This document shows positions 9,921 to 47,876 of a DNA stretch of 64,000 bases, piece after piece. The DNA is taken from NCBI RefSeq assembly GCF_030028105.1, contig NC_092378.1, positions 125,415,731 through 125,479,730 of the forward strand, read 5' to 3'. The position numbers and the translations under genes are program-made. The notes under the pieces were generated by a model. The model was not told where the DNA came from. It saw only the letters and a list, made by a program, of their open reading frames with translations, and ran no database searches. How positions within the stretch are numbered: position 1 is the stretch's first letter; the number at the start of each line of letters is the position of its first letter. Origin of the DNA: Mobula birostris (Eukaryota).

Positions 9921-9958
9921 CAGTCGACATTTCAGGCCGAGACCCTTCGTCAGGACTA
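9921..9958 (-). ncRNA. Minimal hammerhead-ribozyme-like motif (C15.2>U variant)
   Basis: Minus strand reads tagtc CTGACGA A GGGTCTCGGCCT GAAA T GTC gactg. Stem I agtc/gact pairs. Confidence 0.6.
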
Positions 9959-10041
9959 ACGGAAGGAAGAGTTAGTAAAAGATTGAAGGAAGAGATTGTA
10001 GTAAGAGATTGAGATAATCTCTTACTAACTGTTCCTTCAGT

Positions 10042-10078
10042 TAGTCCTGACGAAGGGTCTCGGCCTAAAACGTCGACA
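10042..10078 (+). ncRNA. Hammerhead-like motif with core mutation (GAAA>AAAA), probably inactive
   Basis: tagtc CTGACGA A GGGTCTCGGCCT AAAA C GTC gaca. Confidence 0.5.
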
Positions 10079-10544
10079 GTACCTCTTCCTAGAGATGCTG
10101 CCTGGCCTGCTGCGTTCACCAGCAACTTTGATGTGTGTTGCTTGAATTTCCAGCATCTGCAGAATTCCTCATGTAATTTTTAAATGTTTAAAACACCAGA
10201 AACCACTAAAAATGGAATTTAGTGTTATCAGAAAAATAAAATTAAAGTTTATTCCATTTCTCCACACTAAAATCAAGAAGTCAAACAGGTACGTTTCCCA
10301 TCATATGGAAATCTGGGACTTCCTCATTCTTACATGCTTATACTAGAGTCCCAAACTTACTGTCCACCATGATAAATTCTAGAGGTCTGTCATACATGAA
10401 AAGAACAAATGCTTTAAGCCTAGTCCTTATTCTCAAAAAGGGTATTGCCTGAAACGTTTAACTATTCCATTCTTTCCATGCATTTCTTGTTTGTTTTTGT
10501 AGTTCCAAAGTTTGCAAATTTCATATACCATAGAGCCCTCATTG

Positions 10545-11215
10545 CAGAAGGAAAAGCTCCATTCAATGCAGGTTGGCACTTCCATTGTGTCCTGGATAAC
10601 GGACTACCTGACTGGCAGACCACGGTTTGTACAGCTTCAGAGCTGTGTGTCAGTCATGACTATAAGCAGCACTGGGGGCCAACAGAGAGCAGAATTGGCC
10701 CCCTTTCTGTTTACCCTGTATAGCTCAGACTTTAGATATAACACAGAGTCATGTCATCTGCAGAAATTCTCTGATAACTAAGCAATAGCTGGGTGCATAA
10801 AGGGAGGACACAAGGATTTTGTCAAATGGTGCAAGCTGAATCAACTGCAGCTCAACATCAGTAAGACAAAAGAAATAGAGATGGACTTTAGGAAGACAAA
10901 GTCTGCATAGCTTCCAGTCATTACTGATGGTGAGGACCTACAAGTACCTGGGGGTGCACCTGGATGACAGACTTGATTAGAGCATCAACACAGAGGCTGT
11001 ATTCAAGAAGGGCCAGAGTTGCCTCTACTTCCTGAGGAGACTGAGGTCTTTTGGAGTATGCAGGCCTCTCCTTCACATGTTCTACCAGTCTGTTGTCACC
11101 AGTACAATCTTCTATGCAGTGGTGTGCTGGGGCAATGGCATCAACATGAGTGATGCCAACAGGCTCAAAAAACTGATTAGAAAGGCTGGCTCTGTTATAG
11201 GAGTCAAACTGGACA
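10545..11215 (+). mobile_element. Rex1/Babar-type LINE reverse transcriptase fragment
   Basis: SWITDYLTGRPRFVQL, LAPFLFTLYSSDFRYNTESCHLQKFSD, YKYLGVHLDDRL, LYFLRRLRSFGV motifs. Confidence 0.8.
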
Positions 11216-11319
11216 CATTAGTCCAGTTTGAATTATAGGTCTTTTAAAATTATAGGTCATGCTAGTCTGAATTATGGGTCTTCTGAAATTATCTTGTACA
11301 GTTTACTTATTTAACTTAC

Positions 11320-11511
11320 TTTTGGCTGTGTGTTACGTTCTTTTGGAAGCTGAAAAATAAATTCCTCCACCAGTTCAATGGTGGACTTGTCAACCAGTGG
11401 ACCAGGTACATTCTGCAGCTGGCTGTTGAAGAAAATGTCCAAATGATACAGGAGTTCTTTTGCTGCACTTAAAGCATCTCGCCTCAAAAGGGAATGGCGA
11501 ATATCAGTCAT
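11320..11511 (-). CDS. INTS15: INTS15 first coding exon (192 coding nt)
   Basis: MTDIRHSLLRRDALSAAKELLYHLDIFFNSQLQ...EEFIFQLPKERNTQPK|gtaagt matches the INTS15 N-terminus. The six exons sum to 1323 nt, i.e. 440 aa plus stop. Confidence 0.95.
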
Positions 11512-12756
11512 CCTGTTCGGTAGACACACATAAGTTAGCAGTGCAATAAATACAGGATATTTTCATTTTATTTACTTCAGTAGTTTGCATCTTATTCTAC
11601 AGAAGGATACGTAAAATTAGAACTTAACTTTAGGATCTACAAAAGTTTAAATATGTTTATTCCAAGTCATTTCTGTAATCTTTATTTTACCTCAAGGTCA
11701 CTTTAATATAAAATCTGCCTTTCCATGAAATATGTTCACTATCACTTTATGGAAAACACATTTTAACATTTAACAAATTTAATCTAATCACATTTTCACA
11801 AGAAACCTAGCACCTCGTGACCTGTCAGACTTTCCATAAGTAGATATAATGTTCAAGCATTTTTAAATCAGCAAATCTTTTTCTAGAGTCCAATCATTTA
11901 GCAGATAAAATACTAAATTATCAGAAATTATCACTGTAATTCTTGTTTGTCTAAACAATCATATCATGTGCTTTAAAATATTCTGATGTAAAGGGTGTAA
12001 ATATATTTTTCCTACATTCAGTATTTCTGCCTGATTGTTTTACTCTTTTGTTACATTGACAGTTACAGTACTAATAACCAAATTTCCTGAAAGTTTGAGA
12101 TAAGAGCACAATATACCTAGATTGCTTAAATATTTAGTACAATTTATAAGTAGTCACCAACTGGAACCTATAAAATTTGTACTATGAATTATTAAAGCTG
12201 TCATTTACTGCCCCATATTTTATGGCCAGTGACAAAGGGACACCACCTCCCAATGGTTTCTGAAATTCAATTTTAATTTCTTCCATTTTTGTGAGATTTT
12301 CACGCCACAATCATCAACAGGGAACCTATAGGTCGAGGAACAGGCTGAGCTCCACAGTCACAGCTCTTGCTGTCAGCAAATAAGTAATAAACACTAATTA
12401 TATATATTTTAAATTATATTACAAAAAAATAAAATGAAAAGTTTGATATATTAATATCAGGATTAAGACAGAAGCTGAAATATGAAGTATTTAAGTTAAT
12501 AACAAACATTTCAAAATAAATAGAATTTATTGTCAGCATATGGAGAGAATGACACACAAGTTAACAAAATTTGTTCCTTGGCAGTAAAGAGACTGATTAC
12601 AGTAATTAAAGACATTAAAAATTAACCTTATTCAACATTTTCATTGGTTTTTATACAAGAAAGGCACACAAATAGTCAAGTTCACCTCAAATTAATGAAG
12701 TTATATTAACTACAGTCATTGTCAGAGCCAACCTGCAGAATAGCAGACAGCAATTT

Positions 12757-14380
12757 GCATAAGACCATAAGATATAGGAGCAGAATTAGGCCATTTGGCC
12801 CATCAGGTCTGCTCTGCCATTTCACCATGGCTGATCCAATTTCCCTCTCAGCCCCCATCTCCTGCCTTCTTCCTGTATCCCTTCATGCCCTGAACAATCA
12901 AGAATTTATCATCCTCTGCCATAAATATACATAAATAAACACTTGGCCTCCACAGATGCCTGTGGCAAAGAATTCTCTGGCTAAAGAAATTCTTCCTCAT
13001 CCGTCCTAAAAGGATGCCCCTCTATTCTGAGGCTGTGTCCTCTTGTCTTAAGCTCTCCCACCATAGGGAACATGCTCTTCACATTCACTATAACAAAGCC
13101 TTTTGCCATTTGACAGGTTTCAATGAGGTCACCCCTCATTCTTCTGAATTCTAGTGAAAGCAGGCCCAGAGCTATCAAACGCCACTCTTCATGACAAGCC
13201 ATTCAATCCTGCAATCAGTTTACTGAACCTCCTTTGAACCCTCTCCAGTTTCAGCACATCCTTTCTAAGGGGCCCAAAACTGTTCACAATACTCCAAGTG
13301 AGACTTCACCAGTGTTTTATAAAGTCTCAACATTACATCTTTGCTTTTATATTCTAGGCAAATGTATGTTGACATTGCATTTGCCTTCCTCACCAGACTC
13401 AACCTGCAAATTAACCTTTAGGTAATCCTGCACTAGGACTCCTAATTCCCTTTGCACCTCAGTTTTTTTGTACTTTCTCTCCATTTAGAAAATAGTCAAC
13501 CCTTTCATTTCTACATAAGACCATGACCACACACTTCCCGACACTGTATTCCAACTGCCATTTCTTTGCCCTTTCTCCTAATCTGTCAAAGTCCTTCCGC
13601 AGCCTCTCCACTTCCCCAAAACTACCTGCCCCTCCACCTATCTTCATATCATCCACAAACTTTGCAACAAAGCCATCAATTTCATCATCTGAATCATTGA
13701 CATATAACATAAAAAGAATCGGACCTAACACAGACCCTGTGGAACACCACCAGACACCAGCAGCCAATCAGAAAAGGCTCCCTTTATTCCCAATCCTTGC
13801 CTCCAGCCAATCAGCCAATTCTTTATCCATGCTAGAATCTTTCCTGTAATACCATGGGCTTGTAGCTTGTTAAGTAGCTTCATGTGCTGCACCTTGTGAA
13901 AGGCCTTCAGAAAATCCAAGTACGCGCTATCTACCGATTCTCCTTTGTTTGTCCTGCTTGTTCTATTTTCAAAGAATTCCAAAAGATTTGTCAGGCAAGA
14001 TTTTCCCTTGAGGGAACCATACTAACTGCAGCTTATTTTATCATATGCCTCCAAGTATCCTGAGACCTCATCCTTAATAATCAACTCCAACATCTTCCTA
14101 ACCACAGAAGTCAGACTAACCGGCCTATAGTTTCCTCTCTTCTGCTCTCGCCCTTCTTGAAGAGCAGAGTCACATTTGCAATTTTCCAGTCGAGATTCTT
14201 GAGAGATCATTACTAATACCGCCACAATCTCTTCAGCCACCACTTTTAGAACTCTGGGGCGTACACTATCTGATCCAGGTGACTTACCTACCTTCAGATC
14301 TTTCAGTTTCCCCAAGAACCTTCTCTCTAGTTATGGTAACTTCACATACTTCAGACCCCCATCACCTGGAACTTCCACCA
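12757..14380 (-). mobile_element. CR1 LINE 3' fragment (RT)
   Basis: GNYRPVSLTSVV, GSVLGPILF, KFVDDMKIGG, LEFRRMRGDLIE; CR1-type 3' tail near 12760. Confidence 0.88.
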
Positions 14381-14389
14381 TATTCCAGC

Positions 14390-14575
14390 ATGATTACTAC
14401 TATGGGAACTTAAAGCAGAGTTGGTAAGATCTTGATTAGTAGGGTTGTCAAAGGTTACACGGAGAATGCAGGGGAATGGGGTTTTGAAAGAAAATCAATT
14501 TTCCATGATCAAATGGCAGAGCAGACTCGATGGGATAATTGTCCTAATTCTGCTCCCATGTCTCATGGTCTTAAA
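14390..14575 (+). mobile_element. CR1 3' end fragment
   Basis: Resembles the CR1 3' UTR at 32270-32485 (..ccatgat-aaatggc-gag-agactc-atggg..taattctgctcc-atgtct..). Confidence 0.65.
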
Positions 14576-16504
14576 TGCTTTGAGTTGTATGGTATAAAAG
14601 TGAATTTTGAGAATTTTTCTTAGCACTGAATATTCTAGGCTATTGCTTGTTTACTAAAACTTTTAAGCTGATGGTGATCTTCAGCAAATGGAAATCTTTA
14701 GTGGCATCTTTAACAAGAAACTGTCTTGGGCACAATAGAATATATTATTCACAAAATTATGATGATTTGGTTTAAAAAAGGTATTGATATTGTAAACAGA
14801 AAAATTAATAACTATTACAAAACTGCCCGAGGGGAAAATTTGATCTACTAACTTCTGATTGTATCAGCTACATCCAATGCAGAGCAGCAATAAACAACTA
14901 AATCACTCTCGGAGAACTGCATTTAACATCAGCCAAATGAAGATGGCACTGGCATTAAGGAGGAACCTTACTATCCAAGAAGAAACAGCAATGATAGGAT
15001 AAGCTATTGTACTAAATGTCATTTCATCTCTAGCTTTACAAGATTGATGACAAGCCCAAAGACTTAATTTAGTGGACTAAATGGCCTAATTCTGCTCCCA
15101 TGTCAAATAATTAATGTCTCATAATTGCATGAGTACCTTCAAACTGTGTCCTATTCCCAATGATCTTCAGTGACATTCTACCCATCACAAGGTCAGAATT
15201 GGTGACTGTATAATGCTATTACAGCTCCTCAGAAAATGAAGCTGTCTACACAGACATGAAGCAAGATCTAAACAACGTAACAGGAATCGGTTGATAATGA
15301 CAAGTAACATTTATCCCACAAAGGTGCCAAACAATAACCATTTTCAACAAGAAAGTGTACAATAATCACCTACTGTAGATATTCAATGGCAATGTCATCA
15401 TTATATCCCCTTCCCATCAACATAATTGATGGAAAACTCAAATGGCTCAGCAGATTAAATGTTGTGGGTTCAAGAACACAGTAAGAGGCTGGGTATCCTG
15501 CTATGCACAACTTATCCTAAAGTCTTCACACAACTCACAAGATACTAGTTAGGTACCAGTTATGCTTAAATTAATGTAGTTCCAACAACATTTCAAAGCT
15601 CAACACCATCAAGAAAAAAGTAGGCGGCATTACTGCAACCCAAGCACCACCCTAAATATTCAGTCTCTCCACCAGCTGAGCACCATGACCGAAGTACACA
15701 TCATCTACAAAAATGCACTACAATTACATACCAGGAAAATTCCAACATGTTCAGAACCCAATACATCTACCAATGCAGAATAAGTGAAAAAGCACCCAAA
15801 AACATCACCAACTGCACATGTTCCCATTCAAGTCAAATATAACCGCATTACCTCATCATGCCTGGTCACAGATTCCAGAACTCCCAATACAAGCCTCAGG
15901 ATAATTAGTTTACTTGTGTATGTCATGGAAGTTGGAGATGTTACAGATAGCCAGGAAGACTGCCTAAGGATGCAGATCACATAGAAAGTTGGGCAGAGTT
16001 TTGGTGGATGGAATTTAACCACCACAAATGGAAGATCATGCATTTTAGGAATTCAAAAGAAGGGCGAGTCATTTACAGCAAATGATAGGTTCTAATGAAC
16101 GTCGATGAACAGAAAGTCCTTGGGATTCAACTCTATAGTTCCCTGAATGGTCACACTGGGTGACAAAGATGACATAGATCAGGACACAGAACATAAAGGA
16201 CACTTTATAACAGCAGTGAGACTGCACTTGCAGTACTCTGCGTTTCTGGTTACCACACCATAGTAAGGATGTGGTTGCGTTGGAGAGAATACAGAGAAGA
16301 TTCACCAGCACATTGGCTGGATTGGAGGAGAGATGTCCCAAGAGCAGTGGAAATGGAGGGGTGGCCTGATAGTGGTATGTAAAATTATAAACAGTCAATA
16401 TCTTTTACCCATAGTGGGTATAATCACAAACAAGTGGACATGGGTTTAAAGTGAGAGAAGAGTTTTAAAGGGAACTTGAGGGAAAAGTTTTATTTGACAC
16501 AGAT

Positions 16505-16870
16505 CAACACACACAAAATGATGGAGAAACTCAGCAGGTCAGGCTGCATCTATGGAAATTAATACAGTTGACGTTTCGGGCCATGGCCCTTCTTCAGGAC
16601 TGAGAAGGGAAGGGGAAGATAGCAAAGTCAAAAGGTGGGAGAAGGGGAGGGAGGCTAGCTGGAAGGTGGTAGGTGAAGACAGGTGAGCAGGAGAGGTCAA
16701 GAGCTGGAGAAGAAGGAATCTGATACGAGTGGATCATAGGGGAAAGGGAAGGAGGGAGGACCCAGAGGGAAATGATAGACAGGTGAGGAGGTAAAAGGTC
16801 AGAGTGGGGACTAGAGGAAGAGGAGGGGTGAATTGTTTACCAGAAGGAGAGACGATTGATACTCATGCCA
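16505..16870 (-). mobile_element. Penelope-like element 3' region (polypurine tract + hammerhead)
   Basis: Same terminal sequence as 31380-31470 (caacacacacaaaatg..gaactcagcaggtcagg..catctatgg), followed by a purine-rich tract. Confidence 0.75.
16565..16602 (-). ncRNA. Minimal hammerhead ribozyme motif with intact catalytic core
   Basis: cagtc CTGAAGA A GGGC-CATG-GCCC GAAA C GTC aactg. All core residues present, perfect 4-bp stem II, GUC triplet, one mismatch in stem I. Confidence 0.65.
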
Positions 16871-18289
16871 TCACAGATAGTGGTTGATATTTAGAACTCT
16901 GCTACAGGAGATGATGGAGGAATTGAATACAACCATTTGCCTAGGAGATAATTAGAAAGACACTTAAAGTCAAAGAAAGATGCAGGTGTACAGCAGGCAA
17001 TTAGGATGAGCATTGATGGCCAAAAACGGTTGGCATAGATGCGGCAGGCTAAAGGTCCACTTCTGTTCTGTAACTCTGCGGTTATGATTCTAATTGTACT
17101 GCGGGAGTACCTTCACCAAAAGCACTACAGTGCGTGAAGGTGGCAGCTCACTACCATGTACTTGAGGGCAAATAGAGGTAAGCCATGAATGCTGAAAAAT
17201 TAATGACAAATATTGTTCATGGAATTATAACCAAGTTCCAAAATGCATTGATTAACAGCTATGGCAAGAAGGCAGGTTGCCTTGACAAATTTGTTCTGTT
17301 CTGACAAGACCATCATGCACACATGCATTGTAGTTATTTGCCTAGGCTATTCTGAAAGCAGCCAAATTCCAGTGACACAGAGATTTTGTAGAAACCATAC
17401 TCTAGATTATCTTTTAAAATTACTGCATTTGTCTGATTAACAATCTTGTTCTATGTGTTTAAATAAACAAAAAATAATTTGATTCTATGTAACTTTACCA
17501 GGCTGATCCACAAACTTCCAGATGTATACCAAAATCATAACTCGACTAATGACAAGCTATTCAAATTGCATGTGACGACTTGCTCATTTGAAAGGAAGTC
17601 TCTTAACTGAGTCAGTAATAATTATTTTCTCCTTATTTAATCTAATCTCAATGGGCACATCCTGCAATAATATTCTGTACACCACAGCAGATTTTAAACA
17701 TCTACCATTTAAACTAAGAATGCATTTATTTCAGATTTGAAAAGGTGAAAAAATACCTCTTAATAGTAAAACTGATCTGAACAAGTAGCCTTATAGAACA
17801 GGAAAGTTGACCGTGCCTGTGAATAGCTTATGCATTCACAGGCCAGGACATCAAAATAAAGTTAGAAGTTATGATTGGTGGAGTTGAGAAGTTGCTTTGA
17901 ATCAACATATTAAGCCTTTGTGTTTGCAGACTCACTTGGTAATAATCTCCACTCTAAGGCAGAAATGTTTGTGTTCAAATACTACTTTGGAACAAAATAA
18001 GCTCAAGACTAATAACAAATGGAAAAAGTACAATGTCATTTGAAATCGAGGACAGAAAGTTGTAGGAAGAAGGATGGAGGCGTTATTCGCAGGTGTCAAG
18101 ACCACGACTTTTCACATCAGAAACATTTTGGTCACGATCGACCTTCTGTTTGTGGGCACATGCTGTGTGCAGCGTGACGCCATTGCAAACAACTTCTCTT
18201 CAGAAAAGGGAGTGAAACCGAAGTACGCAGCATAGAGGCCTTGACTCTCTTAGTGTCTTTCCCCCATACCCCAAAGCCCAAATGTTAGC

Positions 18290-21674: not shown

Positions 21675-22030
21675 TATAAAATGCCAGAGGAACTCAGGAG
21701 GTTAGGGACCATCTATGGAGATGAATAAACAGTCAACTTTTTGGGCCGAGACCCTTCGTCAGGACGGGAGAGGAAGGGAGAAGATGCCAGAATAAGGAGG
21801 TGGGAGGAAGGGAGGGAGGTGGTGATGGGCAAAACTAGGTGGGTGGGTGAGGAGGAAGTAATGGGATAGGTGGAGAAGGTAAAGAGCTGAAGAAGAAGGA
21901 ATCTGATAGGAAAGGAGAATGGACCATGGGGGAGAGGTGAGGAGGAGGGGCACAGGGAGGTGGTAGGCAGGTAAGGAGAAGAGGTAGAGACCAGGGTAGG
22001 GAATTGAAGAAGAGGAAAGGGGGAAGGGAA
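21675..22030 (-). mobile_element. Penelope-like element 3' region with mutated hammerhead (21730-21767)
   Basis: Minus strand ccgtc CTGACGA AGGGTCTCGGCCC AAAAA GTT gactg, plus the purine-rich tract seen at 16600-16870. Confidence 0.72.
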
Positions 22031-27600: not shown

Positions 27601-27935
27601 CTTTGATGGTGACATGGAGAAAAAGCTACACTTTAAATTAAAATCCATTCAGTATTTAATGAATGGCGCAAGAAAAAACAAACTGCTGAAGGAACTCAGC
27701 AACTCAGGCAGCATCTGGGGAAGCAAAGAGAAAGTCGACTTTTCTGGTGCACCACGCTGCAGCTCGATGACATTTAGCTCATACGGGGGACTGAGGAAAT
27801 GACAGATAGGAGCTACAGGGAGGCAGTCACCACTAGGTTGCAGGAGGCAGGTAAATGGGTGACTGTCAGGAGAAGGAAGGGAAATAAGCCACCAGTACAG
27901 GGTATCCCAGTGGTTGTTCCCCTCAATAATAAGTA

Positions 27936-28754: not shown

Positions 28755-30667
28755 TATACCATTTTGAATACTATTGAGGGGAACCACCTACCGAGGGGAG
28801 TCGCAGCGACTGGGTCTCCGGCACTGTCCAGCACTGTGGCTCAGAAGAGAAAAGAGGTGAAGAGGACTGCAGTAGTGATAGGAGATTCCATAGTTTGAGG
28901 TATAGAGAAGAGATTCTGTGGATGTGATAGAGACTCCCGAATGGTATGTTGCCTCCCAGGTGCCAGAGTCAAGGATGTCTCAGATCGGGTCCACAACATT
29001 CTAAAGCGGAGGGTGAGCAGGCAGAAGTCTTGGTACGTATTGGCACCAATGACATAGATAGGAAAGGCAAGGACGTCCTGAAGAGCGACTTTAGGGAGCT
29101 AGGTAGAAAGCTGAAAAGCAGGACCGCCAGGGTAGTAATCTCTGGATTGCTGCCTGTGCCACGTGCCAGTGAGGGTAAGAATCGGAGCACTTGTCATATA
29201 AATATGTGGCTGAGGACTAGCGCAGGCTACAGGGGTTCAGATTTCTGGATCATTAGGACTTCTGCTGGGGAAAATACGACCTATACAAAAGGGACAGGTT
29301 ACACCTGAACCCAAGGGGGACAATTATCCTTGCGGGCAGATTTGCTCGAGCAGTATAGAAGGGTTTAGGCTAATTTGGCAGAGGGATGGGAACTAGAGTG
29401 ATAGGGCTATGGATGAAGCAGTTGGTTTACAAACAGACGCAGTGTGTAGAGGGACTGCTAGCAAAGACAGGCTGATGATAGGGCAAGATTGCAGTCAATA
29501 GGATGAGTTGCAATGTAAAAAGGGGACAAAATCAGAAAAAGGTGATGAATACGGACTGAAAGTGTTATATTTGAATACACGCAGTATACGGAATAAGGTA
29601 GGTGGACTTACAGCACTTTGAGATGGGCAGGTATGACATTGTGGGCATCACTGAGTGTTGGCTGAAAGAAGATTATAGCTTGGAGCTTAACATCCAAAGA
29701 TACACTGTATCAAAAGGACAGGCTGGTAGGCAGAGGGAGTGGGGTGACTCTGTCGGTAAAAAATGAAGTCAAATGGTCAGAAAGAGGTGACATAGGATCA
29801 GTAGATGTAGAATTGTTGTGAGTAGAGCTAAAAAACTGCAAGGATAAAAAGGCCCTAATGGGAGTTATATACAGGCCTCCAAATAGTAGCAAAGGTATAG
29901 GCTATAAATTGCAACAGGAGATAGAAAATGCATGTCAAAGGGATAATCTTATGATAGTCATGGAGGATTTCAATATGCAGGTACATTGGGAAAATCAGGT
30001 TGGTGCTGGATCCCAAGAGGGGGAATTTGTAGAATGCCTTAAAGATGGCTTTTTAGAGCAACTTGTGGTTGAGCTCACTAGGGGATCAGCTATTCTGGAT
30101 TGGGTGCTGTGCAATGAACTGGAATTGATTAGAGAGCTTAAGGTACAGGAACCCTTAAGGGCCAGTGATCATAATATGATAGAATTGACCCTGCAAATTG
30201 AGGGGGAGAAGCTAGAGTCAGATGTATCAGTGTTACAGTGGAGTAAAGGGAATTACAGAGACATGAGAGAGGAGCTGGCCAAAGTTGATTGGAAGGGGAC
30301 ACCAGCAGGGATGACAGCAGAGCAGCAATGGCTGGAAATTCTGGGAGCAATTCAGAAGGTGCAGTATATGTACATCCCGAACAAGAAAAAAGCAGGATGA
30401 TGCAGCCGTGGCTGACAAAGGAAGTCAAAGCCAACATAAAAGTCAAGGAGAGTATACAATAGACCAAAAATTAGTGAGAAGTTAGTGGATCGGGAAGCTT
30501 TTTAAAATCGACAGAAGGCAACTAAAAAGTCATAAAGAGGGAAAAGATGGAATATGAAGATAAGCTAGCAATAATATTAAAGAGGATACCAAAAGTTTCT
30601 TCAGATTTTCAAAGAGTAAAAGGGAGGTGAGTGTAGATATCGGTCCGCTGGAAAATGAGCTAGAGAC

Positions 30668-31470
30668 TGCTACACTGCGAAGTCTCTTCCAAGGTTGCCG
30701 ACTCTGAAGCAGAACAAGTGCTACACCTGCCCCTACACCTCCTCCCTCACTACCATTCAGGGCCCCAAGCAGTCCTTCCAGGTGAGGCAACACTTCACCT
30801 GTGAGTCTGTTGGGGCACCTACTGTATCTGGTGCTCCCGGTGTGGCCTTCTGTATATTGGTGAGACCCGACACAGATTGGGAGACCATTTTGCCGAGCAC
30901 CTATGTTTCATCTGCCAGAAAAAGTAGGATCTCCCCATGGCCACCCACTTTACTTTCACTTTCCATTCCCATTCCAACATATCTGTCAATGGCATCTCCT
31001 ATTGTCGCAAAGAGACCACACTCAGGTTGAAAGAGCAACACCTGATATTCCATCTGGGTATCCTCCAACCTGATGTATAAACATCGATTTCTCGAACTTC
31101 CAGTAATGCCCACCCCCTTCACCATCCCCTTTTCCCTCTCTCACCTTATCTTCTTACCTGCCTATCACCTCCCTCTGGTGCTCCTCCCCATTTTCTTTTT
31201 CCATGGCCTTCTGTCCTCTCCTATCAGATTCTCCCTTCTCCAGCCCTCTTTCACCAAACAACTTCTCAGATCTTTACTTCACCCCTCCCCCCTTCCAATT
31301 TTGCCTATCACCTTGTGTTTCTTGGTCCCCTCCCCCCACCTTCTAACTCTGACTTCTCATCCTTTTTTCCCTCTGGTCCCTATGAAGGGTCTCGGCCCGA
31401 ACCATCGCCTAGACACCTTCCACAGATGCTGCCTGACTTGCTGAGTTCCTCCAGCATTTTGTGTGTGTTA
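30668..31470 (+). mobile_element. Penelope-like element fragment: GIY-YIG endonuclease C-terminus + 3' repeat with degenerate hammerhead
   Basis: CYTCPY..FQVRQHFTCES, then after a frameshift YCIWCSRCGLLYIGETRHRLGDHFAEHL..P.ATHF..RLKEQHLIFHLG. Pyrimidine tract, then ggtccctatgaagggtctcggcccgaac and the shared terminus. Confidence 0.85.
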
Positions 31471-32818
31471 CTTAGAGAGGTAGTTATAGGGGACAAGGAA
31501 ATGGCAGACGAACTGAATAAGTATTTTGCATCAGTCTTCACTGTGGAAGACTCTAGCAGTATGACAGAAGTTCGAGAGTGTCAGGATGCAGAAGAGAGTG
31601 AAGTTGCCATTACTACGGAGAAGGTGCTTGGGAAAATGAAAGATCTGAAGGTAGATAAATCACTTGGACCAGATGGTGTACACCCCAGGGTTCTGAAGGA
31701 GGTGGCTGACGAGATTGTGGAGGCATTAATAATGATCTTTCAAGATTCACGAGATGGTTCCAGAGAACTGGAAAAATGCAAGTGACACTCCACTCTTCAA
31801 GAAGGGAGACAGGCAGAAGAAAGGAAATCAGTTAGTCTGACTTCATTGGTTGGGAATTTGCTAAATGTGATTGTTAAGGATGTGGTTTCACGGTAGTTGG
31901 AGACACATGATAAAACAGGCCAAAGTCAGCACTGTTTCCTCAAGGGAAATCTTGCCTGACAACATCTGTTGGAATTCTTTGAAGAAATAACAACCAGGAT
32001 AGACAAAGGAGAATCGGTGGATGTAGTGTACTTGGGTTTTCAGAAGGCCTTTGACAAGGTGCTGCACATGAGGCTGCCTAACAAGTTAAGAGCTCATGGT
32101 ATTATAGGAAAGATACTAGCATGGATAAAGCAGTGGCTGATTGGCAGGAGGCAAAGAGAGTGAATAAAGGGAGCCTTTTCTGATTGGCTGCCAATGACTA
32201 GAGGTGTTCACCAGGGGTCTATGCTTGGTCTGCTTCTTTTTACATTATACATCAATAATCTGGTAAATCTGTAGAATTTGATGTCACAGGCGGCTCCGGA
32301 GGCCAAGTAATTGGCTATATTTAAGGCAGAAGTTGATAGGTTCTTGATTAGTCAGGTATGAAGGGTTACAGGGAGAAGACAGGAGATTGGGGCTGAGAAA
32401 GAAATGGATCAACCATGATGAAATGGCGGAGTAGACTCCATGGGCTAAACAGCATAATTCTGCTCCTATGTCTTAGAGTCTTATAGTAAATCTGTCTGAT
32501 TCCGAGACTGAAGAATGCAGAACAAAAGGAAACAAGATCCATAAGGAAAAAAACAAGAAAGAGAGTTATAGATCTCAGAATACAAAGGAAATTTGAAACA
32601 TGAAAAAAGATAGCAAAGGAAATATCAAACTAAGTAGAAATGGAGATTGAAGAGTTAGAAAGACATGACAGAATTATGCACATAAATAGTGGAGACAAGT
32701 AAACTCCAAGAATCAAAGAAATACATAGCTCAAGTTATGAGATTGAGAATCATAACAAATCGCATAATACACAATAATAATAATAATATATTTAGCTGAA
32801 TAATATTTGATGACGTAC

Positions 32819-34539: not shown

Positions 34540-34785
34540 AATGAATAACAGTCCCTCAAACTTCTGTGCTACCTCAGATAATCTTGTTTACAGTTTATCT
34601 CTATGGTTTCACCCTCTTATCAGCTTGGTGTCACCTCACACTCCCTGACCCTTGCTGTAGCTTCACAAACTTTTTTGTCTCCTTTTCAGTTCTGATGAAG
34701 AGTCTCTAAATAGAGATGGTAACTGTTTCTCTTCCTGCAGATGCAGCCCGACCTGCGGAGTAGTTACTACATTCTTTTGTTTTTG
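34540..34785 (+). mobile_element. Old PLE 3' region with degenerate hammerhead (34687-34725)
   Basis: cagtt CTGATGA AGAGTCTC..aactg followed by cagatgcagcccgacctgcggag. Confidence 0.55.
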
Positions 34786-35049
34786 TTTTACCTCTCCTTT
34801 GCACATATCCAGGACAAAATAGTAGTGTGATCACTCAAGTTGAGTATGATGTTCTATTGAGAGATTGTCTATTTGTGGGTCCTTGGGTGGCTGTAGAGGC
34901 TGAACCAAGATCCACATATTCTGGTGCAGTGTGGGCAAAAGTAAGAGGTGGCTGTGGTTAGTGGTTGAGTCTTTTGGTTTGCTGTCTGCACAGCAGAGGT
35001 CACACTCATTTAACGCAGTTCCCTCTTGATCAGATTTCCTCTAAGTGTA

Positions 35050-35596: not shown

Positions 35597-35759
35597 CTAA
35601 AATTGAAGCATAATTATATTTCATCCTTATGAAAGGTAGAAAAAAATCAAAGACTTAGAAAGCTTATTATGATCATCTTGTACTTTGGACTGATTTCATT
35701 TTAAGGTGAAATTCCTTATTGTACATATTGTTTCTTCAAGCCACACCATTAATTCAAAA

Positions 35760-36571
35760 AGCTATGTTCCTTGGGAACAGATTCATTACTGTGTGAACAT
35801 ATACCTGATATACCAACCAATGAGGAGCTGGCTTCTGTGCTCCACCCCTTGAACTCATTACTACAGATCGGGAAGAAATGGCAATGGACAAAGCAGTGTG
35901 AGGTGGCTTTCCAAAAGGTAAAAGAAATGGTGACGTCACACACTTTACTCACACATTATGTTTCACATCGTCCAGTGAAGCTTGCCACGCACTGCTTGGG
36001 ATGCCAACACATCCAGAAGAAAGATATCCAGAGCTGTCAGAACCACTTCCTGCAGTCCGAGTCAGCTCCTACAACTACCATGGAGAAGGCCCCAGAATCC
36101 GAGATAGTTTCACAACCACAAGTCCCTCCTGCCAAGCAAAGTGACCCACTCTCCTTGTCAGGAAAGACATTATCCCACAAGTGTAACAAAACCTCCACAG
36201 CAATTAAATCTTTAAGCATGCATGGGAAGATTTAAAATTTACTATGCTGTGGATGTTTCGATATAATAGTTGTATCATATAGTATATTGTATATATGTTG
36301 AGTTACATTCTGTATTTGGTTGGAGTTTGTAGTTAAGCAGGGAGGAGTGTTGTGGATTTAATATTTCAGTGATATTTAAGTAAGCATTCTTTATTTGTTT
36401 AAATAATTTATTATGGGTTATATGTAAAAATACATGAAATGCATTCGTCATGACGCTACCACATGATGCCTATGTGTCTTGCTTAAAGTAAAAACAAAAC
36501 TAGACACATTCTCCTGGGTTCCCATTTTTTCTTGTAATTAGTTTCATGTCTTGAAGTTACAAAATGTAACA
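35760..36571 (+). mobile_element. Gypsy-like LTR retrotransposon remnant with PPT and 3' LTR (36348-36571)
   Basis: LASVLHPLNSLL..KKWQWTKQCEVAFQKVKEMVTS..LLTHY..PVKLA (RT-RNase H connection); PPT aagcagggaggag then TGTTG...TAACA. Confidence 0.75.
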
Positions 36572-36770
36572 GTGTTGAGAACAGATTCAATTAGAACATT
36601 TTAAAGATAATTATTTGTATGTTTCACTTGGAACAAAAGAAGTCTACAGAAGAACTGTATAAAGAACACAATGAATGTAGTCATTCTACCAAAGAGCTTG
36701 CATAATCCTGATAGAATAAATGCTATGTTATTCCATGAATAAATTAACCAGGATCATCGACCATACATAC

Positions 36771-38491: not shown

Positions 38492-41400
38492 GAAGTCAAG
38501 TTTATTATCATTTAAATATATATATGTATATAACGTATAGAACCATACAACATTATATAGAAACAAGCTATTTCTTCGAACCAGGGTGTAAAGCACAGTA
38601 GTACACATAACACACGATAACTTATGAAGGTACGTATAAGTCTACAGATGAATCACACATAAATCACAAGCTAAAGTGCATTAATTTTAAATATTGGAAG
38701 GTACGGAACAGATTAACCAGTGACACTTTGAATACGATGCGGCCAGGAGTGCAGAAACCTAATGGCCTGGGGGAAGAAACAGTTTCTCATCCTGACCATT
38801 CTTGTTTTTATGCATCATAGTCTCCTGCATGATGGTAGAAAGTCAAAGAGGATGCTGGATGGATGGGTGGGATCCTTAATAATAGTAAGGGCCCTGCATA
38901 TGCAGCAGTCCTGATAAATGTCTCCGGTAGATGGTAGGGAGACCCCTACAATCCTCTCAGCTGTTCTCACAGCTCACAGTCCTTTGTAGGGACTTCTGGT
39001 CCAATACTCAACTCCTCCCATACCAGATGGAGGTACAACCTGTCAGGATGCTCTCAATGGTGCTCCTGTAAAACACAGTTAAAATGGGGGCTAGGAGCCT
39101 TGTCTGCCTCAATCTTAGGAAGTGGAGGTGCTGCTGTGCCTTCTTGTTCAGGGAGATAATATTAAGGGACCGGGTGAGGTCATCCATGATGTGAACTCTC
39201 AGGAACTTAGTGCACTTAACTCTCTCTACATAGAGCCATGTACTCGCAGAGGGGGATGGTTCGTCTACACCTTCCTTAACTCAACAATGATTTCCTTTGT
39301 CTTCTCCAAGTTCAGGCTTAGGTGGGTTCTCACACCAGCCGCTCCGCTTCCTCTCTATATTCCGTTCGTCATCGTTCTTGATAAGGCCCACCACTGTTGC
39401 GTCACCTGCAAACTTAATGACACGGTTTGAGCTGGATCCTGTCATGTGTCAGCAGTGTGACCAGTAGCGGACTGCTCAACGTAATGGGACTAGAGACATT
39501 GCTGCCCACACGGTCTGACTGTGGCCTTACTGTTAAGAAGTCCAGTATCCAATTGCAGAGGGAGGTGTTGAGACCCAGTGAGGACAGTTTCCCCACCAGT
39601 TTCTGGGGTATGATGGCGTTGAACACCAGACTGAAGTATATAAACAGCAGTCTGGTATATGAGACCCCATTTTCCAATCGGGACAGGACAGAGTGGAGAG
39701 CAGAGGCTATTGCATCATCAGTGGATCAACTTGAGTGAGAATTGAACTGGAAAGGATCTAGTGTAGCCGGGAGAAAGGCTTTAATGTGCTCCAGGACCAG
39801 CCGCTCAAAGCATTTCATTATGGTTGATGTTAACGCCACCAAACAATAGTCATTTAGGCAGGTTACTGTCTCCTTCTTTGGCACTGGAATGACGGCCACC
39901 TTGAAAGCCAAAGGGCCAATGGATTGTTCCAGAGAGATGTTGAATATATCCGTCAGCTGGGCTGTAGTCTTTCAGAACCGAACCTGGTATATTATCGGGC
40001 CCCGCAACTTTGCGTGGGTTGACTCTGGCCAGGGTCTGCCTCACCTCGGCTTCAGCCATACAGAGTATCTGTTCACCTGGGGGAAGGGGTTCCTTCCTCA
40101 CCAGCACTTTGTTCTGCACATCAAACTGGATATAGAGTATATTGAACCTCTCAGGAAGTGAAACATCCTGGTAAAGCATCATGAGTCCTGATGAAGGCCC
40201 GAAGCGTCGACTATACTCTTTTCCATAGATGCTGCCCAGCCTGCTGAGTTCCTCCAGTGTTCTGTGTGTGTGTGTCACGATCCCTCAGCCTGGCATGGAC
40301 CTTTGCAGTAAGCCATAGCATCTGATTTGCCCGCACCTGGATGAATGATGGTAACGTTCTCAGTACACTTCTCTATGTAGCTGGTCGCAGAGTCCACATA
40401 TTCCTCAATATTAACATGGTTGCCATAGGTAGCAGCCTCCCTGAATATTCTCCAGTTCCTATTATCAAAGCAGTCCTGTGGTGCAGAGACTGCACTGTCA
40501 GACTATGTTTCTGCCACCTTTAGAACTGGTTTGACCCGTTTGATCAATGGTTTGTATGCTGGAATTAACATGACAAATACGTGATCTGTGAGTCCAAGGT
40601 GGGATTGAGCAACTGCTTTATAGGCACTTGGTATGTTATTGTAAACCAGGTCTAGTGTATTTTCACCTCTGGTAGCAAAATCAACATGCTGGTGGAATTC
40701 AGACAGGACTGTCTTTAGGTTCACATGGTTAAAATCGCTTGTGATGATGAAAATACCTTCAGGGTGCTTAGTTTGAAAATACTGATAGCGCTGTACACCA
40801 ACGCAGTGCCTCGCTGGCATTAGCAGAGAGGGTGTGGTGATATATACAGCTGCCAATGCAATTGTGGTGAACTCCCTCAATAAATAAAATGGTTTGCACT
40901 TCACAAAAGTGAACTCAATCATCGGTGAACAATGGGGCACCACTGTTAAAGCGTCTGTACACCAGTTATTATTTATGTAAATATAGATATCACCACCGCA
41001 TGCCTTGTCTGAGATCGCTGGGTTCCTGTCAACCTGAAACGCACTGAAACCCTCCAGCTGGATGACTGTGTCTGGGATGGATTCATGAAGTCTTGATTCC
41101 ATGAGAATGTGTGCACAGAAGTTTCTCCCTCACTGGTTCAGTCTCAGGCACAGGTAGTCCAGTTTATTTTCAAGTGAGCGGACGTTTGCCAGTAAGAATG
41201 AGGGGAGAGCTGACCTGAAGGGCTTCAACCTAAGTTGTTCCTGAATTCCAACGTGTTTCCCCCCTTTTCGTTTCTTTGTGCTCCTCTTCCTATGGTATCA
41301 CTCACGGAGGTCTGTAGCAGGCAATGGTGTGCACAATAAGCCCAGACTGCCGAGCTCCTCTGCAGTTCAACAGTTCATAATGAGGTAGAATTGCAGTGTA

Positions 41401-42391: not shown

Positions 42392-42714
42392 TCCCCCCCA
42401 CCCCTCTATTCTCCACTCTGGCCCTTTTATTTTCTTCTCCCTTACCTATTACATCCCCCTGGGTCGCCTCCTCCTATAGTCCACTCTTCTCTCCTATCTG
42501 ATTCTTTCTTCTCCAGCTCTCAACTTTTCCTACCCACCTGGCTTCACCTATCACCTTTCAGCTATCCTTCCCCTCTTTCCACCTTTTATTCTGGCATCTT
42601 CCCCCTTCCTTCTCAGTCCTGAAGAAGGGGATTAGACTGAAACATTGACTGTTTCTTCATTTCCATAGATGCTGCCTGACCTGCTGAGTTCCTCCAGCAC
42701 TTTGTGTGTGTTGA
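42392..42714 (+). mobile_element. PLE 3' region with hammerhead remnant (42614-42651)
   Basis: Pyrimidine tract, then cagtc CTGAAGA AGGGGATTAGACT GAAA C ATT gactg and the shared terminus. Confidence 0.72.
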
Positions 42715-44164
42715 GTAGAATAGCCTGTTTGAGGAAGAGTAATGAAAGAGGAGAGAATCCAAATAGAAGTGGACCAGCACACCATGAATACACAAAATAG
42801 AAAACGTTCAGCAAGTTCACAAAATACTAAATCTCAGAAGATAAGAGACTGCATAAGAAGTGGAACTAAGTGTCTTATTAAATGCAGGAGCTTATGTTGG
42901 ACTTGACTTTTTCTGTTTTAACTGAGAAAGCTGAAAAAAGGGTCAAACTATTTTTGAATTTTTATCTCAGCCATAAACATCCTTGCTTGCAATAATTATC
43001 AACCAGGCAGATTTTCTTGGCTGAACTGCAAATGATTCGGCCCACTGCTCTGACTCAGTCCCCACCCCTACGTTTAAGTTTTTGTGGATGCCAGTTCATA
43101 CTGTCTTAGGGCTTTCAATCTCAGAGTCAGGTGACAGGGCACAATTACATCCCACACAACCTATCACAGATGCTTGTTTTCTGAATATTCTGGCAGCCTT
43201 TGACAGAGCAATGTTCCCTTGCCAGTCTGAGGGGTTCTGTGAATGCTTACATAGCTCTGCTAGTCAGACACAAGTGAAACGAATAAACTATTTTAATTAA
43301 GAAACAATAAATACATTATTTGTTTTTCTATAAAAGTATTCAAGTTATTAAAACATTATAGCATGAATAAATATTCAAATGCACTAATAAACATTCATTA
43401 GTATTTAAAATGACAAATGAGGATTTCCATCCTACAGTAGGTTGGATGATGCAGAGGAATCCTAAACTTATTCTCCGATTCCATGTGGAATTCAGTGGTA
43501 GGACACAGTACGGCATGGTCTTACATGCAAGTGGCAGCTTCCTTCATATTTGACACCTACAGCAGTGTAATGAGCCATTATTTTCACTCATTTTTCTTTA
43601 AAAATACCATATGTGGCTTTCAAAACACATATTAACTGCAGATAATAAATAAATCATCTTATATGAAACCAAGTTATGAAGAAACAGCCAGAAGTTTTAA
43701 ACTAGTACTGATTAAATGTGAATTATCTGCAAAGCATTACTCAGTCAGTACAAACTGAGCAACTTCATTTGTCACTTTAAAACCAATCACAAGTTGTCAT
43801 CTATGGTTACCTTGTATGAATATAAGGTGATTACATAGTCATACTTTATTGATCCCAGGGGAAATTGGTTAATTTTTAAATCATACCCCATACTTTAGAT
43901 GAAGATAACACAAAATTTCTATAAGTAATAAATTAAATATCAATTTTGTGCCTCATTACAGAGAAACAGTATTCTTGATCTCCTAGGTTGGTGCTAATGT
44001 TGAGAACTGAATACAAGGCAATTTGAAGTAATCAGCCTTGCTCAATGAAGCCACAAAGAAAACAAATCACAAAAATATTTTTCATTATTTCTGGATAAAA
44101 GAAAAATGTTGGATATAGTGGTGGTAAAATAAACAATCATGGTGCTTATGTAAAGACTATAAGT

Positions 44165-44815
44165 GGCTATATTTTCATCAGGAGTTGAGGAGATTTGGTT
44201 TGTCACCTAAAACATTCAAAAACTTCTACAAATGTAACATGGAGAGCATTCTCACTGGCTGAATCACTGTCTGGTTTTGGGGGGAGGTGCTACTGCACAG
44301 GATCATAGTAAGCTGTAGAGAGCTATAAAATTAGTCAGCTCCATCATGGGTACTAGGTATCCAAGGTATCTTCAAGGAGCCTCAGAGAAGTAGCTTTATC
44401 AAGGTCCCCCACCACCAAGGACATGCTCTCTTCTCATTGTTACCATCAGGAAGGAGGTACAGAAACCTGAATGTACACACTCAGTGATTCAGGACAGCTT
44501 CATCCCCTCTCCCATCCAATCAATGAATACTACCTCACAAATTCTTTTAAAAAATTCTGTTTTTTGTACTACTTATCTTAATTTATCATGAATTGCATTG
44601 TACTGCTGCTGCAAAGTCAACAAATTTCACGACAAGTGCCGGTGATATTAAGCAACACACATAAAAAACGTCAACTGAAATGTCCACTGTACCTCTTCCT
44701 ATAGATGCTGCCTGGCCTGCTGCGTTCACCAGCAATTTTTATGTGTGTTGCTTGAAATTCCAACATCTGCAGATTTCCTTGTGTTTCCGGTGATATTACG
44801 CCTGATTCTGATTGT
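44165..44815 (+). mobile_element. Rex/Babar-type LINE 3' fragment with nested PLE mini-element
   Basis: IRS.RRFGLSPK..NFYKCNMESILTG, FSLLPSGRRYR; tail ..cctgattctgatt. Confidence 0.7.
44651..44786 (+). mobile_element. PLE mini-element with short inverted arm, 12-bp TSD
   Basis: TSD ccggtgatatta at 44639-44650 and 44787-44798; agcaacacacataaaaa inverted against tttttatgtgtgttgct. Confidence 0.8.
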
Positions 44816-44989
44816 AGCTGACAAATTATTAGAAAGTACCAAGTGCCTACATTAATATCTCTGTTACACTGTATGTAGATTTTACCAAACTCTTGACATC
44901 CATCCCAAACATCCAGGATTTCTTCTGTTCATTGCATCAACTATCACAATCTCCAAAAGCAGGCAATTGCAATATGAATTCCAACACAA

Positions 44990-45348
44990 AATGGGGATGG
45001 AACTGGACTCTCTGACGGTGGTTGCATGCCATCTTGGACAATGTCTCCCATCCACTACATAATGTACTGGTTGGGCACAGGAGTACATTCAGCCAGAGAC
45101 TCATTCCACCGAGATGCAACACAGAGCGTCATAGGAGGTTATTCCTGCCTGTGGCCTTCTAACTTTACAACTCCTCCCTTAGAGGGTCAGACACCCTGAG
45201 CCAATAGGCTGGTCCTGAACTTATTTCCTGGCATAATTTACATATTACTATTTAACTATTTATGGTTTTATTACTATTTAATTACTTATGGTGCAACTGT
45301 AACGAAAACCAATTTCCCCCGGGATCAATAAAGTATGACTATGACTAC
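44990..45348 (+). mobile_element. Rex1-type LINE 3' end
   Basis: GMELDSLTVVA, HPLH, RSTFSQRLIPPRCNTERHRR.FLP; tail aataaag(tatgac)n. Confidence 0.7.
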
Positions 45349-46691
45349 TAAATATACCCATAAAGTTATCAAATTTAACTTGAATAGCTTTGTGGAAATT
45401 TTGGAGCCTATCAATGCTTTCCCTAAAGAAAACAGGAAATCCTATCTGCAACTTGAAGATGAGTAATGGACTAGGAGCTGGTACTCCTTACTGATACTAA
45501 GCTCTCCGTTTAGCTGTCCAAGGCAAGAATAAGGTTGTATTCTGTCCCCACTCATAGTTATCAACTTCTATAACAGTTAAAGTTTGTGCAGAGACGTAAT
45601 CACTTGACACTTCTGCAATTCAAACTAGAGTAAACATGCCACCAGAAATCCAGGTAAAAGATTGCAAAAGTAACAAATACAAAGGTAAATTGCTAGAACT
45701 GTTTGATGACTTTCAGGCCAGATCTGAAGATTTGCTGAACTTCAGACTCTGCTTCTCCTACGTTGATTATGATTGATGAAGGAGTGAAGGAGTCTTATTT
45801 TCAAAAAGATGATTATGGAAAGATTCACTGTATAGATAGAATTACCAGAACTCCAAGAAGTGCAAGCTCTGAACATGATCTGCATGTTAAGAGTCTACAA
45901 ATGAATTCTGGAAGCAATTACCAGGACCAGTATCCTCATTACAAGAATAGCATCATATGACTCATTTTAATTAACAGCATATTGTTTTGAATCACAGTAT
46001 CTTTGATGAAATTCATCAAATTAGTATTTCCTTAACATTTGGCTGAGAAACCCTAGATCATTTGAGAACTTGCTAAGAACGTTCCCAAACACAACCATAT
46101 TGGAGAATCACAAAGCCTCCAATTCCACCGTAAATAGTTAGGATAGAGGAAGATTATGCTTAACAACTTTCTAGAAGTTGGGAGTGTCTGCAGTAAAAAT
46201 GCATACCTTGCAGCTCTCAAACTTCTGAATATCATTGAATTGCTCTGAAGCACATTGAATTGCTCAGTTTAGCCACACTGCTATAAATTAAATGGTTTAG
46301 TCTGTTAGGTAGCACAGGAACAATTTGGCATTTAATTGGAACTTAAATGAAGACAATTGCACAAATAAGCTTGTACAGCACATGGAAAGGACACAAGGTC
46401 AAAAGTATACCTTCTAAAGATATAAAGATCAATTTTCTATTGATATATGGCAATTGACAATCACTATATTAGTTTTTACTGGAGATGATCCACATACTGG
46501 CAGTAAAAGGTACACAGACCTTGTACATTTAACATATTAGGGTTAGTGTTTGTGATCAGTAATGATAGCACTGTAGCAATAGAGAACGCAGTAGAGTAGC
46601 AATGGTGAATGCAGTACGAAGTGAAAATTGACACTGATGTACTAGATAGTGTAGCGTTATAGTGACATTGGGTAGGGTAATGGTATAAGCT

Positions 46692-46885
46692 ACACTCACA
46701 AAACGCTGGAGGAACTAAGGAGGCCAGGCAGCATCCATGGAAAAGAGCTGTCCTGATTAGGGGTTTCGGCCGGAGGCGTCAACTGTTTGCTCTTTTCCAT
46801 CGATTTTGCCAGGCCTGCTGAGTTCGTCCAGCGTTCTGTGTGTTGCTTTGGATTTCCAGCATCTGCAGATTTTCTCTTGCTTATG
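46692..46885 (+). mobile_element. PLE hairpin mini-element with degenerate hammerhead and probable 13-bp TSD, in ECI1 intron 1
   Basis: Inverted arms flank tgtcCTGATTAggggtttcggccGGAGgcGTCaactg. Flanks aatggtataagct (46679-46691) and aatggtacaagct (46886-46898). Confidence 0.7.
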
Positions 46886-47039
46886 AATGGTACAAGCTGT
46901 GGGGATGTTGGGTAGGGTAAGAGCACTGTGGTGATACCAGAGAGGATACTGGCACTTCATTGCCGCTAATAGTGATACCAGGCAGTCCACTGATGCCAGG
47001 TAGGCAGAGAGCATTACAGGGTTTAGCACTAGCCAGTGC

Positions 47040-47440
47040 CCTGGTGCCGGGCAGGCGAAGAACGGGGGCCGAGCTTACAATTCCTAATTTCCCTCCAATA
47101 TTTGGTACCGGTCCAGTTAATTCCGGCCTGCACCCAGAGGCCGCCACCCGCTGGACCCCGGTGTCACAGACCTGAACAAAACCCTCGAACCGCCTTCAAT
47201 AGCGCCGCCATTTTCCGCCGGGGAACAGAAACCGGAAGCTATGGGGCGGAAGCAGTGCTGCCTTTCGAGCTGCGGGGCGGAAGCAGCGCTGCCTTTCGAG
47301 TTGCGATGGAACTGCAGCTTGTGTTGTCCGGCCTGCAAATCCACGATGATCCTGCAGATGGTGAGGGGGAGTCGTTTCGAAAACCGTACTTTCAGCTTTA
47401 TCTCCGAAATGGTCGTACGTTCGCTGATTACTCCCGTCCA
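47040..47440. promoter_or_regulatory. ECI1 CpG-island promoter with ETS-like (CGGAAG), GC-box and YY1-like (GCCGCCATTTT) motifs
   Basis: CpG-rich; CCGGAAG at 47232, GGGGCGGAAG at 47243 and 47274, GCCGCCATTTT overlapping the ATG. Confidence 0.7.
47172..47211 (-). CDS. ECI1: ECI1 exon 1 coding part (40 nt)
   Basis: AAAATGGCG Kozak context in a CpG island; MAALLKAVRGFCS G|gtctgt, phase 1 matches exon 2. Total CDS 921 nt, 306 aa. Confidence 0.8.
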
Positions 47441-47688
47441 GTTTCAAGTATGCACATAGCACCAGATGGATTTTAACTTATGCCGCTGTTCATTTGATTT
47501 GTGTGATTGAAAACACCTCTGATACTTTCAACGACGTATTTGCAAACTATGAAAAACTTTTTGTTTGAATAAATGGTCCGTAAAAGTGGAGTGGCAATTT
47601 AGAGAGGAGGAAGTTCTCTTCAGTGGATTACGAGGGGTGGTTAATAAGTTCCTGGCCTAAGGTGGAAGGAGTCAATTTAGAAAACCTA

Positions 47689-47876
47689 AACACGAGGAAG
47701 TCTGCAGAAGCTGGAAATTCAAGCAACACACACAAAATGCAAGTGGAACGCAGCAGGCCAGGCAGCATCTATAGGAAGAATCCTGACGAAGGGTCTCGGC
47801 CCGAAACGTTGACTATACTTCTTCCTATAGATGCTGCCTGGCCTGCTGTGTTCCACCAGCATTTTGTGTGTGTTGC
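47689..47876. mobile_element. PLE hairpin mini-element, 13-bp TSD
   Basis: TSD tttagaaaaccta at 47676-47688 and 47877-47889; about 58-bp inverted arms flank a hammerhead motif. Confidence 0.82.
47779..47815 (+). ncRNA. Minimal hammerhead motif with intact core (GUU triplet)
   Basis: aatc CTGACGA A GGGT-CTCG-GCCC GAAA C GTT gacta. Confidence 0.58.

Follow-up and report, generated by a model that had tools for sequence, protein, structure and literature searches.

Ten copies of a short hammerhead-like motif are dispersed along a 64-kb stretch of the Mobula birostris genome (contig NC_092378.1, positions 125,415,731 to 125,479,730; hereafter the window), and we judge them quite probably to be the hammerhead part of 5′-truncated 3′ ends of a Penelope-like element (PLE), likely of the Neptune type and from a ray, most of them decayed and predicted to be inactive. 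The motif is an ordinary member of the known PLE minimal-hammerhead family, mostly fossil. The Penelope-like origin that a first-pass annotation of the window had proposed is borne out by a GIY-YIG endonuclease remnant, inverted arms, a tail, and target duplications.

That annotation gave the motif as (c/t)agtc-CTGANGA-A-GGG(tctcgg)CCC-GAAA-C-GTC-gact(g/a) at ten sites, and we searched for it over the window and 30 shuffles. All ten sites carry one repeat, at most 2 nt from the coordinates first assigned; the ends of two sites shifted, the ungapped 38-nt frames being 31374-31411 and 47778-47815 instead of 31376-31410 and 47779-47815. With ≤12 mismatches allowed, nine of the ten sites align to the motif ungapped, and none of the 30 shuffles gave a match; alignment of the copy at 34687 requires a gap, and the copy at 40183, with a 7-nt deletion, matches solely out of register. 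A degenerate pattern (≤3 mismatches) was found five times in the window versus 0.00 expected, and a strict core descriptor recovered two copies versus zero or one per shuffle. Two further arms with only the 3′ part of the motif, at 44663 (+) and 27744 (-), were absent from the earlier list. The density is ten motifs in 64 kb, with all of them lying from 9.9 to 47.8 kb.

The majority line of the ten copies has the layout first described (stem I, CUGANGA, an extra A, stem II, GAAA, an ACGU palindrome, and GUC) and fits the published consensus of PLE minimal hammerhead ribozymes (min-HHRs), in agreement with the earlier assignment to a minimal type I hammerhead. It contains the CUGANGA, GAAA, and UH core, the extra base between positions 9 and 10.1, and the G10.1-C11.1 pair; there is no helix III, and the palindromic 15.2-16.2 segment is ACGU. 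Metazoan PLE min-HHRs share these features, along with a short open helix I, a U-rich 5′ flank, and occurrence mostly as single dispersed copies of truncated elements, whereas stem II is short in the window (4 bp). Min-HHRs are dispersed by the thousands per genome in coelacanth and Xenopus (4,000 to 9,000), mostly as single truncated copies (PMC4209133, Cervera and De la Pena 2014; this and all other papers and preprints are cited from the portions available), compared with a local density here of about 1 per 6 kb.

The motif does not, however, recur intact, as had been supposed: single copies are mostly damaged. Eight copies were scored by script for core and stems, and those at 34687 and 40183 were judged by eye. 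All invariant core bases are kept in 4 of 10 copies (9921, 16565, 42614, and 47778), the ACGT palindrome is intact in three, and both stems are fully paired at 9921 only. CTGANGA is disrupted at 31374 and 46748, and GAAA is disrupted at these two sites as well as at 10042, 21730, 34687, and 40183. Among the nine copies scored for the G10.1-C11.1 pair, four have G-C and three have G-U, and two are unpaired.

The predicted folds favor a closed form, with CGUC paired to core bases; the probability of the open-core fold is 0.008 at 9921 and 0.11 at 16565, and for two copies the best predicted fold is a long duplex. Across the ten copies, 83.7% of stem cells are paired versus 80.3% when shuffled (9/500). 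Published min-HHR monomers remain uncut, and dimers and trimers cut weakly (PMC4209133); a lizard PLE hammerhead cut only with the element protein (PMC11167929, Frangieh et al. 2024), and 1 of 9 dimers cut in a preprint on Xenopus retrozymes (bioRxiv 10.64898/2026.07.22.740005). Because the predicted fold is closed and reported cleavage is weak or protein assisted, weak, helper-dependent cleavage in the parent RNA would be the likeliest activity. A family of working ribozymes is not supported for the dispersed motifs, as most are decayed and the window holds no two intact same-strand copies free to pair; the dispersed copies are probably inert, since even the best copy is predicted to be fully paired to its antisense twin.

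Parent element and insertion anatomy

The element carrying the copy at 31374 retains a linker (30662-30817) and a GIY-YIG remnant (30808-31077, with a frameshift and one stop), followed about 300 nt downstream by the motif, with a pyrimidine-rich untranslated region (UTR) between. The Pfam match of the remnant (E 1.8e-4, 22.2 bits) falls just below the cutoff of 22.6. The six homologues found, from Mobula and Hypanus, include proteins of Mobula hypostoma and Hypanus sabinus that are 61 to 73% identical to it, the best (73%) being from Mobula. The linker motif CX2-5CxxC is a mark of Neptune and Nematis (PMC8557442). Two homologues (P0001 and P0002) carry CX4CxxC ahead of the endonuclease; the window copy has kept CxxC and lost the first Cys, and the homologues carry a YIDD-type motif that we took by eye as reverse transcriptase (RT). 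Since Nematis is a nematode clade, the CX4CxxC linker makes a Neptune-type parent likely. One Hypanus protein (P0003), annotated as “divergent protein kinase domain 1C isoform X2,” consists almost entirely of the RT-endonuclease frame of the element and is therefore likely an exonised or misannotated element.

Four insertions are arranged head-to-head, with both 3′ ends pointing outward, and are flanked by target duplications of 12 to 15 bp (12/12, 14/15, 12/13, and 13/13 matches). The duplications score 11 to 13 in these 4 of 11 insertions tested, versus a maximum of 10 in 300 random pairs; in the other seven, none rises above this null. Each of the four has one arm ending near position 10143 of a reference copy (10016-10190), which we term the short end, and the other ending about 31 nt beyond, the tail end. 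Inverted pseudo-long terminal repeats, tails of 30 to 40 bp, and duplications of 8 to 10 bp have been described for PLEs (PMC8557442, PMC3846280, PMC11167929), and the tail has been explained by two internal RT start sites (PMC11167929). An origin by the cDNA folding back on its hammerhead hairpin was considered and rejected: as DNA, the hairpin is predicted to be weak (-1.7 to -3.0 kcal/mol), and the insertion at 47690 has an inverted arm that extends further 3′ than its forward arm, which is impossible by fold-back. One long arm starts (44663-44686) with 12 nt from the 3′ part of the motif duplicated locally, probably by a slip on 3-nt microhomology.

These features resemble those of Neptune-type, endonuclease-bearing (EN+) PLEs (Arkhipova 2006, via PMC8557442), which have a C-terminal GIY-YIG domain with a Cys/His motif, inverted 5′-truncated arms, a tail at one end, and the CX2-5CxxC linker, found here in close homologues; the window differs in holding only a truncated, broken endonuclease and in its target duplications, which are longer than the 8 to 10 bp given in PMC3846280. 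They also recall PAc, a Poseidon element of Anolis carolinensis, in the part of its description available: its hammerhead lies upstream of two alternative 3′ ends bounding a tail of 30 to 40 nt, and its priming on both strands fits the head-to-head insertions in the window. PAc, however, belongs to another clade by its linker motif, its open reading frame (ORF) starts in stem II, and protein-assisted cleavage has been shown for it.

The element protein would nick both DNA strands and prime reverse transcription from two internal positions below the hammerhead; head-to-head joining of the truncated cDNAs would scatter the motif. Going by other family members, the ACGU palindrome would bring two motifs together in the parent RNA, with a cut 3′ of GUC; we lean toward such a dimer cutting weakly, likely only with the element protein as helper. 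The scattered copies themselves are very probably by-products without a role of their own.

Variation and arm ends in related genomes

We compared the reference, at 80% likeness, with 4 of 24 listed runs, all of which consist of contigs: three DNA runs from three organisms (X1, X5, and X13) and one run guessed to be RNA (X9). Matching contig pieces number 59,038, 80,084, and 17,486 in the three DNA runs and 5,803 in X9; the range of 17,486 to 80,084 per DNA run agrees with the high abundance claimed for the family, although pieces are not a copy number. The lower decay in X9 may come from contigs losing rare variants, and it was not used as evidence. Loose ends running into long unique flanks occur, among the best 24 of 900 rows, at the tail end (10169/10174) in all three DNA runs and at the short end (10142/43) in X1 and X5. 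No further copies were found in viral contigs or prokaryote genomes, and the two metagenomic loci that matched are identical chance matches with no hammerhead upstream.

Among the best 40 of 57 variant rows, 11 fall in the motif, comprising eight CpG transitions (7 to 25% of depth in the DNA runs, with one cell at 1.4%) and three bases private to the reference; apart from the latter, no non-CpG core position appears among these rows. Large non-CpG differences between organisms are seen in the listed rows only in the tail (10081, 10083, 10092, and 10130; 71 to 96% in X13), and other subfamilies diverge from the reference immediately beyond either edge of stem I, where loose ends lie at 10043 and 10077. 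Variation at position 7 (N7), first attributed to its being a free position, is partly CpG decay; U at N7 nevertheless reaches 15 to 25%, about twofold the 7 to 10% decay of its CpG partner G8, and this excess suggests real U7 source lineages. Together, the CpG-type changes, the confinement of divergence to the tail, the subfamily split outside stem I, and the U7 excess suggest that the motif is under selection while in source elements and decays neutrally after insertion. At reference positions 10066-10067, the DNA runs have U at 11.1 in 37 to 70% and non-G at G12 in 13 to 37% of depth, possibly from a source lineage in which the pair is G-U, and perhaps one without G12, or else from reference bias.

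To locate arm 5′ ends relative to the hammerhead, we tallied 25 of them inside the reference: 9 from the window and 16 from the best-supported joints listed for related genomes (with 16 and 62 further rows beyond the listing), the latter comprising both sides of three opposite-strand joints and 10 of the 12 rows of a second joint table, in which the joint type is not given. The tally excluded 12 + 2 skip rows, since skip-type joints in related-genome contigs are probable divergent-subfamily alignments, and six window arms running upstream of the reference or fading before it. Seven of the 25 ends, where 1 would be expected, lie at the stem I 5′ edge (10043-10045; bin-corrected p 9e-4), and five lie at 10080-10086, 5 to 11 nt below the cut site (corrected p 0.19); the related-genome rows alone place 4 of 16 at the stem I edge (corrected p 0.07). 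A cDNA hairpin, tried as the cause of this cluster, is too weak. We treat the clustering as a lead only, because the test was post hoc, it used best-supported rows with the joint type partly not given, and subfamily divergence starts at the same stem I edges. That the hammerhead sets cDNA ends in vivo, with one arm stopping where stem I begins on its 5′ side (7 of 25 ends within 5 nt) and its partner often below the cut site (5 of 25), seems doubtful.

Host gene and neighboring features

Two insertions (9847-10182 and 16503-16810) lie in introns of INTS15, the latter in the first intron mapped, and their motifs at 9921 and 16565 are sense to the gene (Table 1). The INTS15 exon protein is 92% identical to that of Hypanus sabinus and 91% identical to that of Hemitrygon akajei. 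About 330 nt from an INTS15 exon, 9858-10143 forms a 127-bp inverted repeat (95% matched) and a strong predicted double-stranded RNA hairpin. Two Rfam microRNA matches (43.8 and 41.5 bits; cutoffs, 72 and 100) were rejected as inverted arms rather than microRNAs, and a lysine riboswitch match was rejected as chance.

Table 1. Motif copies, insertions, and host gene in the window (window coordinates; “.” for insertions with arms on both strands)
Feature	Position	Strand	Details
INTS15 host gene	1040..18099	-	Seven coding pieces mapped
Head-to-head insertion, INTS15 intron	9847..10182	.	Arms 9858-9984 (-) and 10016-10174 (+, tail), 95% alike; 12-bp target duplication 9847-9858 / 10171-10182
Best-kept hammerhead motif	9921..9958	-	All core bases; stem I 5/5; stem II 4/4 (including G-U); palindrome altered to AUGU
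Hammerhead motif	10042..10079	+	G12 to A, predicted dead; inside the reference used for related-genome runs
3′ end and pyrimidine-rich UTR	16503..16810	-	Motif 16565-16602; core intact; N7 = A; stem II 4/4
3′ end and UTR	21678..21990	-	Motif 21730-21767; G12 to A; palindrome broken
Old short arm beginning within motif	27678..27744	-	Missing from earlier list
5′-truncated element inside long interspersed nuclear element (LINE)	30662..31476	+	Linker, GIY-YIG remnant, UTR, motif 31374-31411 (decayed), short 3′ end
Old divergent copy	34680..34790	+	Motif 34687-34725; 3′ core broken; U-A replaces C-G in stem I, A-U replaces G-C in stem II
Short copy from 5′ edge of motif	40183..40275	+	7-nt deletion in stem II
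3′ end and UTR	42481..42715	+	Motif 42614-42651; core bases kept; stem II 2/4; palindrome broken
Head-to-head insertion, absent from earlier list	44639..44801	.	Short inverted arm; long arm begins within motif; tail; target duplication 44639-44653 / 44787-44801, one mismatch
Head-to-head insertion	46679..46898	.	Long arm from 5′ edge of motif; motif 46748-46785 decayed; 13-bp target duplication, one mismatch
Head-to-head insertion	47676..47889	.	Tail on inverted arm; forward arm begins inside stem I; motif 47778-47815 with core intact, GUU, stem I 3/5; exact 13-bp target duplication

Elsewhere in the window, LINE fragments with RT and endonuclease matches occupy 6381-8137, 12760-14573, 28931-32484, 48135-49057, and 54015-55435, with an esterase-like ORF1 piece at 28931-29305 and an RNase H-like piece at 35753-36232. 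Broken frames at 55685-60325 (-) resemble what we take to be a BEL/Pao long terminal repeat (LTR) retrotransposon; the four frames tried had no match in Pfam. A 31-bp minisatellite (52624-52776, 4.9 copies) is unrelated to the hammerhead, and a run of 153 Ns spans 28451-28603. Overlapping open frames on both strands at 62950-63449 (127 and 132 amino acids, no Pfam matches) may be an exon of a neighboring gene.

Competing explanations and significance

Several results weigh against viewing these motifs as the ribozyme-bearing ends of a Neptune-type element. Rfam reports no hammerhead family at E ≤5 in the window (its models with helix III presumably miss minimal forms), no copy folds better than its own shuffles (best z -0.95), and double changes amount to three cells, two of them in the old copy at 34687. 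As to the element, Pfam finds no RT domain in the GIY-YIG homologues, no full-length element lies within the 64-kb window, and the Neptune label is drawn from the linker motif. Finally, bases other than G at G12 make up 18%, 13%, and 37% of the depth across the three DNA runs, above simple CpG decay, which could reflect reference-allele bias or the spread of a dead subfamily; and not one of the 25 tallied arm ends falls at the cut site.

These last two results are also what might be seen if the motif were vestigial or structural, retained for its fold, for protein binding, or as a splice acceptor (a pyrimidine tract with AG at the 5′ strand of stem I), with cleavage unneeded for spread. The 27 nt ahead of stem I are indeed 70 to 89% pyrimidine in seven of seven copies, five of which end in YAG; an intron end in D. 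virilis maps to the 5′ end of helix I (PMC4209133); and with hammerhead mutants, insertion in vitro was unaffected and no RNA-seq ends lay at the cut site (PMC11167929). The U-rich flank, however, belongs to the published consensus of the whole family, the listed variants include no non-CpG core position even though the tail diverges between organisms, and the catalytically free N7 varies more than its CpG partner G8. We consider a purely structural or vestigial motif unlikely, if worth keeping in mind.

Far less probable is that dispersed copies act in host transcripts, where same-strand copies in one pre-mRNA would pair, cut, and affect host RNA. The two best-kept copies, 16565 and 9921, are both sense to INTS15 and 6.6 kb apart, and, given independent decay, five functional bases exposed to CpG loss are all retained in about half of the depth of two DNA runs. 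Yet the antisense twin of 9921 precedes it in transcription, and the two are predicted to pair fully in the INTS15 pre-mRNA (-248.8 kcal/mol, z -31); 16565 has a mismatch at the stem I pair adjoining the cut site and no hammerhead fold in its local context; and published min-HHR activity is low even in tandem, eight of the nine Xenopus dimers having failed to cut. It is similarly improbable that the copies are a nonautonomous retrozyme or SINE-like (short interspersed nuclear element) family starting at the hammerhead and spreading as an independent short RNA. The 5′ edge of the motif is the start of three window copies and of four contig joints, and animal retrozymes derive from PLE ends, but none of the nine tandem arrays in the window contains the motif, at least five copies extend far upstream into the UTR or endonuclease, and 5′ ends vary. 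Non-LTR retrozymes likewise have a type I hammerhead tied to PLE ends (PMC7229834; bioRxiv 10.64898/2026.07.22.740005), but they form tandem arrays with a hammerhead per unit, in contrast to the dispersed and inverted copies here. Truncated 3′ ends of a PLE remain our preferred explanation of the ten motifs.

A literature search covering sources other than Repbase, Dfam, and subscription journals returned no paper on PLE hammerheads of rays or on junction clustering at them, and the element may already be catalogued in Repbase or Dfam. The searchable supplement and alignment part of PMC4209133 contains no shark, skate, or ray name; the available portions of PMC7229834 and PMC6155905 name no cartilaginous fish in the context of PLE hammerheads; and a term search of a manta genome preprint gave no mention of Penelope or ribozyme. 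Retrozymes have been reported in one chondrichthyan genome (bioRxiv 10.64898/2026.07.22.740005).

With the family described here, the PLE minimal hammerhead extends, at very high density, to what is likely a ray lineage; this is of use mainly in repeat annotation, where the head-to-head copies mimic microRNA hairpins. Cleavage by PLE hammerheads is weak, protein assisted, and dispensable in vitro. If arm ends do cluster at hammerhead edges, the many young insertions would make the role of the hammerhead testable by junction counts, with no bench work; and if the hammerhead does set cDNA ends, the very many copies in ray genomes would document the part that the ribozyme, or a splice-acceptor-like site bordering it, plays in transposition.

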